Assembly (NCBI RefSeq): GCF_050320075.1
Contig: NZ_CP190018.1
DNA: 64,000 nucleotides
Strand: one strand, 5' to 3'
DNA from: Escherichia coli
GTDB lineage: Bacteria; Pseudomonadota; Gammaproteobacteria; Enterobacterales; Enterobacteriaceae
Shown here: piece after piece, positions 54,001 through 57,000 of the stretch
How the letters are laid out: each line of letters begins with the position of its first letter
Numbering within the stretch: position 1 is the first letter of the stretch
Position numbers: made by a program

Positions 54001-57000
54001 CCAGTCGTGAGGACGGGAGGATACGCAGTGGGCTGTTGTTTACCGGCAATGTTCACGATTCGTATCCCCGCAGGCTGTTGCTGGATACGCGCCTTTCTCC
54101 CCTGGATAAAACTGCGTGGATGATGATTCGTCTGCATGCCCTGAATAATGAGGGCGCAGTCTTTCCGACGTACGATGAACTGCAGTTACAACTGGCATCT
54201 CCCGGCTGCGGGAAGGCGTCCCGTGAAACAGTGAGCCGTGTGCTGACAATGCTGCGGCTTACGGGCTGGCTGAGTCTGTGTAAGCGGGTCAGGGATGAAA
54301 AAGGGCGGGTCCGGGGGAATATTTACGCCCTGCATGATGAGCCACTGACCTGCTGTGATGCAGAAAAGTTTGACCCACGATACCTGGATATGGTTCTGGA
54401 TACTGTGAGCAGGAGCCGGAACAAGACAATCCGGCACACAGCCAGTGAAGTGCTCAGCGATATCAAAAATGAGCCCGGTATGCGGCATTACCACAGCCAT
54501 ATCACTCTGTTTGAATCGCGTATGGGGGCTGCACAGACGCCGGTTCAGCTGGCGGCGCGTCAGCGGGTGAACCCGATGGTGAATGAAAACACAGGCAGAG
54601 AGAGTGGTTCGGATTCCGTACATACCCCTGCACCTGTCGTGCAGGTAAACGAACTCAGTGATCCATTAATCGAACTCAGTGAAAAACAGGAAATGAGCCC
54701 ACTCAGTTCGGATTCCGTACCACCTGGAAAATCAGCAACTTATCACTCAGTTCGGAAAACGAACAATTACGTACGTAATATCACACACAGTGTGATTAAA
54801 AATACGTACGTATTGCCTGAGTCGGTGAAATCGCAAATCAGCGCAGAAGACACGGACATGCTGACAAAACAACTGCAGGCATTGCCGGAAGAACTGGCAG
54901 GTAGTGTGCTGAGCAGCCTGTCACAGATGCTCAGCAAAAACACGCTCCAGAATCCGGTTGGCTGGATGCTGGCTGTGATGAAACGTGCGCGTGAGGGGCG
55001 TTTTAATACGCCGGATATGTCCGTGCATGAATCCCGGTCGCCAGCCCGTGCACCATATCAGCCAGTGTACAACCGTGATGAACGTGAACGTCGTCGCGGG
55101 AAAGTGGCGTCACCTGAAACGGTGAGCAACATTGTCGCAGAATTCCGGGCCAGCCTGAAACGTGCAAATGCTGCCCGTCTGGCGGCGCGTGTTTGATGTT
55201 AAAAATCACACGGTGTTGCCAGTGGCAACAGCGATTAAAAAATGTACGGTGTTGCCAGTGGCAACAGTGGTTAAAAAATGTGCGGTGTTGCCAGTGGCAA
55301 CAGTGGTTAAAAAATGTGCGGTGTTGCCAGTGGCAACAGTGGTTAAAAAGTGTACGGTGTTGCCAGTGGCAACAGTGGTTAAAAAATATCCGGTGTTGCC
55401 AGTGGCAACAGTGGTTAAAAAATATCCGGTGTTGCCAGTGGCAACAGTGATTAAAAATCGCGCGGTGTTGCCAGAGGCAACAGTGGTTAAAAAGTGTGCG
55501 GTGTTGCCAGTGGCAACAGTGGTTAAAAAGTGTACGGTGTTGCCAGTGGCAACAGTGGTTAAAAAATGTGCGGTGTTGCCAGTGGCAACAGTGGTTAAAA
55601 AGTGTGCGGTGTTGCCAGTGGCAACAGTGGTTAAAAAATGTGCGGTGTTGCCAGAGGCAACAGTGGTTAAAAAGTGTACGGTGTTGCCAGTGGCAACAGT
55701 GGTTAAGAAATATACGGTGTTGCCAGTGGCAACAGTGGTTAAAAAGTGTGCGGTGTTGCCAGTGGCAACAGTGGTTAAAAAGTGTACGGTGTTGCCAGTG
55801 GCAACAGTGGTTAAAAAATGTGCGGTGTTGCCAGTGGCAACAGTGGTTAAAAAGCGTGCGGTGTTGCCAGTGGCAACGGTGGTTAAAAAATGTGCGGTGT
55901 TGCCAGTGGCAACAGTGGTTAAAAAGTGTACGGTGTTGCCAGTGGCAACAGTGGTTAAGAAATATACGGTGTTGCCAGTGGCAACAGTGATTAAAAATTG
56001 CGCGGTGTTGCCAGAGGCAACAGTGGTTAAAAAGTGTGCGGTGTTGCCAGTGGCAATAGTGATTAAAAATTGTACGGTGTTGGCAGTGCCAACAGTGATT
56101 AAAAATTGTACTGAGTTGGCACTGCCAACATGACGTAATTTCAGTCATTCCTTTTTTTATTTTTGATTGTCAGATCTCCGTCTGCAGGCTGACTATTTCA
56201 GCCCGATATCCTTTTCTTTTGCCGGAGATATAACATGTCTGAAGAACAAATGAAGGAACCCGCATCCCGTCGTGTAGGTGCGCTTACTTCACCAGTGAAT
56301 ATCGAGTTGCACTCCCGTTATGCAATCATGCTGTGGGAAGGGAGACGAGGCACGAAAAGTAAAAGTGCTGAAGATCGCAGGGCAGCGAAAATAATGAGTA
56401 TGCCGGAAGCTATTAAGATGACTGGCGGCCTCTACAGAGATTCTCTTGCTGATAATCCCTATGCGGATGAAACGATGTGGAAAGTTGAAAATGCGATTGT
56501 TGAGGCAACCGATAAAATTAATGCTGAAGTTCGTGTACTTGAAGGGATCCTCAGAAATATTCCGTCAGTGATCACTGTCCGGGATGCTCTTTCTCGTTCT
56601 CCTGTCGATATTGGGGTTTTCAGCCGCTCTCCTCTGGGCTACCGCTGTGTATGGCTTCTTGTCGGGTATGATCAGCTTGCATTAAAAACGTTTCAGGCAG
56701 CACATCTGGGGCTTATTTCACGAAACAGGCGTGATGAGTTGTTGTCTTCTGGTGCGCATCTTATCCGCAAAATTTACGGTATTCTGCAGGGGTATCGCAC
56801 TATGGCGGTAACTCGGGATGATATTGAGAATAAAACAGAAAAGGCAGAGAAAGCTATTGCCCGTTATGGTATGCCTCATGATGATATTCTATCCGGTAAG
56901 CTCAGATCTTCATTTTCTCCGCCCCTGAACCGTAAGTCCCGTGATGCATCCCGGCAATGACAGGTGAGGAGAATTCATGCGTCTCTTTTTGTGTGAGAAA

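Follow-up and report, generated by a model that had tools for sequence, protein, structure and literature searches.

Tandem DNA sites for dedicated proteins take different forms on plasmids and other mobile elements. The sopC site of the F plasmid consists of 12 tandem 43-bp repeats, each with a short inverted repeat, bound by a ParB-family helix-turn-helix (HTH) protein, and its copy number is not critical. Plasmid iterons are direct repeats of 17-22 bp with a phasing of about 22 bp; Rep binds them as a monomer, and DnaA boxes and an AT-rich region lie alongside. ParB sites are often adjacent to origins. In the integrative and conjugative element (ICE) ICEclc, the BisD protein loads at dyad bisS sites and spreads co-directionally with transcription over ~50 kb (Antar et al. 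2025, PMC12409273). The GxxR and ENxxR motifs of BisD bind CTP and are required for ICE activation and transfer (PMC12409273), and BisD acts jointly with the DUF2857 protein BisC in activating transfer promoters (PMC12409273, PMC7423338). In PFGI-1, the label of putative oriV was given, from sequence alone, to direct repeats that contain inverted repeats and directly precede PFL_4669, and the same placement was made in this way for pKLC102, SPI-7, PAPI-1 and ICEHin1056. Here we analyze a repeat array homologous to these, located in a 64,000-nucleotide stretch of Escherichia coli DNA (assembly GCF_050320075.1, contig NZ_CP190018.1; hereafter the window), which matches the chromosome of E. coli YZLc1-3 at 100% identity and from ~44.6 kb on consists of an ICE of the SPI-7/pKLC102/PFGI-1/ICEclc family. 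Comparison of related loci suggests that the array is probably a sopC-like tandem set of parS/bisS-type sites for the BisD-like ParB protein encoded by the ICE itself. The repeats as such have been described before; their re-assignment to ParB and a recognition code are proposed below.

The genes of the ICE are arranged in the order parA, dnaB-PI, ParB-family gene, DUF2786, DUF2857, small genes, STY4528-family gene, array, PFL_4669, topoisomerase III, STY4534 family, ssb and type IV secretion genes. The array occupies positions 55211-56130, starting 15 nt past the stop codon of the STY4528-family "replication protein" gene (the rep-like gene, 53931-55196, + strand) and ending 105 nt before the start codon, at 56235, of the PFL_4669-family gene (56235-56960, + strand). 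Tandem Repeats Finder (TRF) reports a period of 36 bp, 25.6 copies, 91% matches, 0% indels and a score of 1462, and a pattern search of the whole window, in which 0.32 matches are expected by chance, finds 26 dyad cores at an exact 36-bp spacing from 55215 to 56115. The original prediction of about 25 near-identical tandem 36-bp repeats 3' of the rep-like gene is thus borne out. It had described a 15-bp palindrome in each unit; the palindrome is present, but its full extent is 17 bp, with 8-bp arms and a 1-nt center (TGTTGCCA-G-TGGCAACA). Besides the dyad, every 36-bp unit has a TTAAAAA(A) tract.

The dyad is perfect in 20 units. According to the unit table, 24 cores of the main type lie at 55214+36n (55214-56058), among them three with a T to A change at the innermost arm position (GCCAGAGGC) and two with single outer-arm transitions. 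The last two cores (56078-56094 and 56114-56130) are of a symmetric variant type, TGTTGGCA-G-TGCCAACA and AGTTGGCA-C-TGCCAACA, where C to G in one arm is matched by G to C in the other, exactly the compensatory palindrome GTTGGCA-(G/C)-TGCCAAC that had been noticed at the outset. This variant (TGTTGGCA/TGCCAACA) is the main type in the sister ICEs L003 and L084-86. A pattern search of ~70 kb of the ICE found the dyad motif nowhere else. Outside the ICE, in chromosomal kdsB (39049-39065), there is a perfect copy of the 15-bp core (GTTGCCACTGGCAAC), which is put down to chance. Nine units between 55216 and 55891 score as weak sigma-70 promoter-like sites (TTGCCA, 16 nt, AAAAAT) oriented towards PFL_4669, and in some relatives a perfect TTGACA is found within the dyad.

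The array has been annotated as coding DNA. PGAP places a hypothetical protein (WP_217330805.1) at 55162-56133 on the + strand, and a second long open reading frame (ORF) runs through the array on the - strand (55003-56148), as might be expected of a repetitive protein-coding gene. However, four of the six frames of the 36-bp unit are without a stop codon, the array ORFs match no family and the strand chosen by PGAP differs between sister arrays; both ORFs are therefore considered artefacts. Most relatives, furthermore, have 1-4 units and no ORF. A coding repeat was rejected on these grounds and is hardly conceivable.

Eighty Enterobacterales loci were gathered by means of the STY4528 protein, and 9 further E. 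coli loci were added. In nearly all of these ~90 loci, 1-65 copies of the 17-bp dyad TG-N-TG-NNN-N-NNN-CA-N-CA are found between the STY4528 and PFL_4669 genes. The outer bases of the half-site are conserved; positions 3 and 6-8 vary, always symmetrically. The arrays of relatives usually combine an A-tract with a period of 36 bp or of ~104-108 bp (3x36). Watson-Crick pairing is found at 93% of arm positions in 15 related arrays, and more than 10 symmetric dyad variants are seen among related arrays, in agreement with the selection for dyad symmetry that had been suggested from the last two units. Alternatively, template switching at quasi-palindromes together with concerted evolution could spread symmetric changes.

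Compensated arm changes would also be expected if the dyads acted as single-strand hairpins, whether in RNA or in the DNA strand that is transferred or displaced, e.g. as priming or single-strand promoter signals. The T to A variants lie in the would-be 3-nt loop, and the single strands of the array fold strongly (z about -7), although such folding is trivial for any dyad array. The mismatches in the 15 arrays are without a strand-biased G.T preference (35 vs. 45), the array has no match in Rfam, and the arm bases follow amino acid identities in the ParB protein (see below), which a purely structural constraint would not produce. A hairpin function is thus very improbable.

In E. coli the array is a variable-number repeat. 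The original prediction had proposed comparing unit number across isolates, and the arrays counted in E. coli range from 5.3 to 65 copies (5.3, 7.3 with 104-bp units, 12, 16, 22.8, 24, 25.6, 35 and 65), with ~13, 18, 21 and 23 copies implied by match lengths in further close relatives. Other genera mostly have 1-9 dyad copies, and most relatives have 1-4. The 65 units are found in the sister E. coli ICE L089 (10083-12426), where PGAP calls a 2442-bp "beta strand repeat-containing protein", and the 35 units in the sister ICE L090 (9001-10264), in which blocks of TGTTGCCA and TGCTGCCA units are mixed. The dyad array is also a hotspot for cargo insertion: 1.5-6 kb or more of cargo lies between dyads at loci L009, L012, L019, L020, L023, L028, L032, L042, L060-62, L069 and L071. 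There, the STY4528 stop codon is still followed by a dyad after 10-22 nt, and a further dyad precedes PFL_4669 by ~160 bp.

The proposed binder of the array is the ParB-family protein of the same element (47986-49635, + strand; 549 aa), which is assigned to TIGR03764 (NCBIfam, E=6e-115) and has the CTP-pocket motifs GGNTR (residues 92-96) and ENEVR (residues 135-139). In an alignment of 48 ParB homologues, GGNTR and ENxxR are invariant. Residues 163-194 (SMRELSSLL-TEQGLPV-DASSISRMENTL; codons at 48472-48567, + strand) fit what we take to be the Spo0J/ParB HTH pattern, with residue 186 presumably at the start of the recognition helix.

Global correlation between dyad site and protein distance is weak for all protein families, and whole-protein concordance of close pairs first favoured PFL_4669. 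The ParB signal is hidden in whole-protein identity, because only ~20 residues change. In a per-column scan of seven protein families, ParB residue 186 had the highest mutual information of any column, and this led to the co-variation described here. Residue 186 tracks half-site position 3, and a second ParB patch, residues 211-218 (GLGRPQVN; codons at 48616-48639, + strand), follows position 6, with residues 213 and 217 tracking positions 6-8.

The co-variation is modular and is best seen in a natural 2x2 set of E. coli ICEs that share one backbone. In this set the ParB of the window (A186/N217) goes with site TGTTGCCA, that of L084 (A186/R217) with TGTTGGCA, that of L087 (H186/N217) with TGGTGCCA and that of L002 (H186/R217) with TGGTGGCA, and the 5.6 kb from the ParB gene to the array remain 97-98% identical. 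The ParB proteins of the window and L002 differ at 30 residues, 19 of them within residues 163-218 (3.4 expected), clustered in 163-194 and 211-218. Thirteen of these substitutions recur between L003 and L088, which share a different backbone and show an identical TGTTG to TGGTG change in the array. The predicted HTH patch is thus swapped together with the TGTTG/TGGTG array type. Since two to three non-contiguous patches have been exchanged in step while the intervening 5.6 kb remained near-identical, selection for a matched protein-site pair is indicated. Within residues 160-222, the ParB proteins of L008 and L011 differ only at 162, 186, 197, 213, 217 and 218, and the close pairs L040/L082, L017/L023 and L020/L025 likewise fit the code.

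Residue and base pairings were counted in 53 non-redundant loci. Of the 14 loci with N or D at residue 186, 13 have C at position 3, compared with none of the 39 loci with other residues (Fisher 2e-11). Of the 15 loci that combine S, A or T at residue 213 with R217, 14 have GCA at positions 6-8, compared with none of the other 38 (Fisher 6e-12); both tests ignore shared ancestry. Q186 goes with A at position 3 (4/4 loci), Q217 with A at position 6 (3/3 loci), and A, Y or F at residue 186 with T at position 3. These pairings match the chemistry of direct read-out (Arg-G, Gln-A, Ala/Tyr/Phe-T). Among pairs with at least 80% ParB identity, 23 of 24 with the same signature have the same site, and 41 of 48 with different signatures have different sites. 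An out-of-sample case is the pKLC102-like Pseudomonas aeruginosa plasmid pY89, whose ParB shares 34% identity and carries Q at the position matching residue 186. At the position equivalent to the array it has 7.8 repeats of 57 bp carrying TGATGCGG-C-CCGCATCA, i.e. A at position 3, in agreement with the Q186 rule.

The dyad also resembles the chromosomal partition site parS, reported as TGTTCCACGTGGAACA (PMC12409273). Both are dyads with outer TGTT...AACA (parS, TGTTNCACGTGNAACA), parS is recognised by the HTH of ParB, and the variant of locus L058, TGTTTCCACTGGAAACA, differs from parS only in the center. On the other hand, parS has 16 bp and the dyad of the array 17 bp with a central base, and the ParB protein of the ICE is very divergent. 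To our knowledge, E. coli is without a chromosomal ParB. The original prediction had named a site of the ParB-like protein as one of two candidates, and base-by-base co-variation of HTH and dyad over ~60 loci, natural recombinants and the resemblance to canonical parS all point to a parS-type site as the predicted function.

The other candidate was an oriV bound by the adjacent rep-like protein, which would make the repeats iterons that recruit the DnaB-type helicase of the ICE to replicate the excised element. This would agree with the putative oriV label given to the homologous repeats of PFGI-1, pKLC102, ICEHin1056 and SPI-7. Members of the family do replicate autonomously, pKLC102 reaches ~30 copies per chromosome according to secondary citations, and related elements have been assembled as circular replicons without another typed replicon. 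Genes for DnaB, SSB and topoisomerase III flank the array site, the first dyad is always 10-22 nt past the STY4528 stop codon, cargo insertions notwithstanding, and the structural model of STY4528 has a confident winged-helix-like N-terminal domain in addition to a disordered linker. Like the theta-plasmid iteron origins (RK2, pSC101, P1 incA), the array consists of tandem repeats of variable copy number beside a "replication protein" gene.

The features given above for plasmid iterons were not found at the array, however. Its 36-bp period with dyads differs from the ~22-bp direct iterons of plasmid origins, no DnaA box (TTWTNCACA) is present in 44.6-64 kb, and no AT-rich block that could serve as an unwinding element adjoins the repeats (GC 0.43-0.49, never below 0.43). 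STY4528 has no significant match to any initiator, either in Pfam (none at E<0.01) or by fold (no Foldseek match at E<0.1). The GC skew of pY89 is uniformly negative, with no switch, and is uninformative on the origin. The published oriV labels were derived from sequence features, and ICEclc replication reportedly depends on oriT and relaxase. Above all, STY4528 proteins that are 98-99% identical lie beside arrays with different dyads (TGTTG vs. TGGTG) and different unit lengths (36 vs. 104 bp), which argues against the rep-like protein as the reader of the dyad. An iteron origin is thus distinctly unlikely, and of the two candidates in the original prediction the ParB site is supported and the oriV, the one that coincides with the label in the literature, is not. 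In ICEHin1056, mutations in the corresponding module lower transfer up to 100,000-fold, an effect that a regulatory role would explain no less well than a replicative one.

The STY4528 protein may have a target within its own gene. At 54600-54765, where the gene encodes the disordered linker, five to six CTCAGTTCGGA/CGAACTCAG motifs occur in both orientations and two reading frames, followed by an AT-rich palindromic stretch (to 54815). Nearly all loci show DNA-level conservation of this cluster, and within the STY4528 genes of the ~90 loci the hexamer AGTTCG/CGAACT is enriched 8-fold, always at a relative position of 0.52-0.67. The cluster corresponds to the "first half" palindrome of the PFGI-1 oriV and to bisS-3 of ICEclc, which BisD does not bind (PMC12409273). 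It may be a better candidate target of the STY4528 protein than the array.

A second possible reader of the dyads is the product of PFL_4669, for which the array would be an operator, serving autoregulation or titration at the promoter of PFL_4669-topB-STY4534-ssb, possibly besides ParB. The protein belongs to the AcaB family of regulators (Pfam PF08900, E=8.8e-74), its only significant fold match being the AcaB structure 6N8A (probability 1.0, TM 0.49-0.58), and AcaB is described in secondary citations as a DNA-binding activator in IncC plasmids. Array and PFL_4669 have been exchanged as a single block on two independent E. coli backbones; the left edge of the block is sharp and coincides with the STY4528 stop codon, and PFL_4669 is 48% identical between types. 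Of the protein families compared, PFL_4669 also agrees most often in site when pairs of at least 95% identity are considered (23/28), and in most loci the last dyad lies 110-190 bp upstream of its start. In the E. coli recombinants it is the N-terminal half of PFL_4669 that is replaced together with the array. Co-inheritance is, however, expected anyway, because array and gene are physically adjacent. Identical PFL_4669 proteins occur with both GCCA and GGCA arrays, a difference explained by ParB residues 213 and 217, Xenorhabdus PFL_4669 proteins that are 87-91% identical accompany quite different dyads, and no PFL_4669 column stands out in mutual information. We therefore consider it unlikely that the array is an AcaB-type operator.

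Compared with the described systems, the array with its ParB protein is closest to bisS/BisD of ICEclc. Both elements belong to the same ICE superfamily and share a neighbourhood of parA, a ParB-like gene, DUF2857/BisC, an ORF of the size of STY4528, ssb and topoisomerase; both have a ParB-like protein with GxxR/ENxxR and odd-centered dyads at the head of co-oriented ICE core genes. The bisS dyad is, however, 23 bp long, of unrelated sequence and present twice inside genes (inrR, ssb), whereas the dyad here has 17 bp and occurs 26 times between genes; binding was demonstrated for bisS and is predicted for the array. With F sopC/SopB the array shares tandem direct repeats that each hold a short inverted repeat, yet there is no sequence relation, and sopC adjoins sopAB while here 5.6-10 kb separate the array from the ParB and parA genes. 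The "oriV" repeats of pKLC102, PFGI-1, ICEHin1056 and SPI-7 are a homologous element, made up of direct repeats that contain inverted repeats and lie between the STY4528 and PFL_4669 homologues, at the same position upstream of PFL_4669 and with the same dyad format (AGTGTTGTGGGCCACACCACT in PFGI-1, TGATGCGGCCCGCATCA in the 57-bp units of pY89). The PFGI-1/pKLC102 family also shares the intragenic upstream palindromes of the CTGAGTTCGGA type; it differs in unit length (46 or 57 bp vs. 36 bp) and in copy number.

If the array is a set of ParB sites, dimers of the ParB-family protein would recognise the dyads on double-stranded DNA, and the dyads, by homology with ICEclc BisD, would catalyse the loading of ParB-CTP clamps. 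The clamps may accumulate at the array and slide rightwards into the ICE core. There they could act on transfer promoters together with the DUF2857 protein, a BisC-like protein, and/or serve the ParA ATPase as a point of attachment to the excised ICE. Most relatives have 1-4 sites, which E. coli elements have expanded to a variable-number array of 5-65 copies.

Several points weigh against the assignment to ParB. Pfam recognises no ParB domain (ParBc) in the protein, and a phmmer/profile search of the PDB returned only weak N-terminal matches to KorB/ParB, so that the HTH was assigned from motif resemblance. The Fisher tests treat loci without correction for phylogeny, and R217 is also found with non-G sites (9/24). 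The distance of the array from the ParB gene (5.6 kb downstream) and from parA (10 kb) is unlike classical par loci, in which the centromere lies beside the parAB operon. ICEclc BisD binds a different 23-bp dyad, present twice inside genes and not arrayed (PMC12409273), and a search of 70 kb of the ICE for a bisS-like long palindrome present twice found none. The AcaB-family gene beside the array is also co-replaced, and a second partner is possible. With regard to shared ancestry, the close ParB pairs supply independent events.

Other features of the element are as follows. The ParA-family ATPase gene at the end of the ICE (44671-45549, + strand) encodes a possible partition partner. The DUF2857 gene (50356-50934, + strand), two genes downstream of the ParB-family gene, is annotated with the domain that BisC, the partner of BisD in ICEclc, also has (PMC7423338). 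The spacer from the last dyad to PFL_4669 (56131-56234, + strand) would by synteny correspond to the position of the ICEclc promoter PinR. At 44528-44605 (- strand) PGAP annotates a tRNA-Ser that was not recovered by ARAGORN or Rfam. The segment is presumably the 3' ~52 nt of tRNA-Phe fused to ICE DNA, and it is read as the att junction of the ICE in pheV, beside the kps capsule cluster. Two single large palindromes, at 47443-47464 inside dnaB-PI (GACGCTTCATGAATGAAGCGTC) and at 59219-59242 between topB and the STY4534 gene (ACGGCGCTGAATTTTCAGCGCCGT), do not recur in 70 kb of the ICE. The interval between topoisomerase III and the STY4534-family gene also has a 46-bp direct repeat in two copies (59381-59473; TRF score 144), and an IS66-family element (ISCro1, ~61240-63860) splits an Rpn-family nuclease gene downstream of ssb. 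The same ICE carries ISApl1-mcr-1.1-pap2 (colistin resistance; L091 36159-40812), ~36 kb past the end of the window, as well as ArdA, a GI-type type IV secretion system and a type IVb pilus with shufflon.

A wider reading, which we offer tentatively and which falls a little short of being probable, is that the repeats of pKLC102, PFGI-1, SPI-7 and ICEHin1056, labelled oriV for twenty years, are loading arrays for BisD-type ParB-CTP clamps. The same reading holds that the code (residue 186 to position 3, residues 213/217 to positions 6-8) might diversify by small gene-conversion patches and so define specificity groups of ICEs, and that a copy number of 1-65 might tune clamp loading and thus either a bistable switch to transfer competence or how stably the excised element is kept.

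ICEs of this family are vehicles for the spread of virulence and resistance genes, the present element carrying mcr-1.1 beyond the window, and control of excision, maintenance and transfer is known within the family only for ICEclc. The variation in array copy number among isolates provides a ready-made strain marker. If the array is a loading site for a ParB/BisD-type protein, ICEs of the SPI-7 and pKLC102 types would gain a concrete cis-site and the long-standing "oriV" annotation would need correcting. The related loci would then form a natural series of matched protein and site variants, with single residues paired to single bases, that would be useful for studying the evolution of ParB specificity and for predicting cross-talk between co-resident ICEs.

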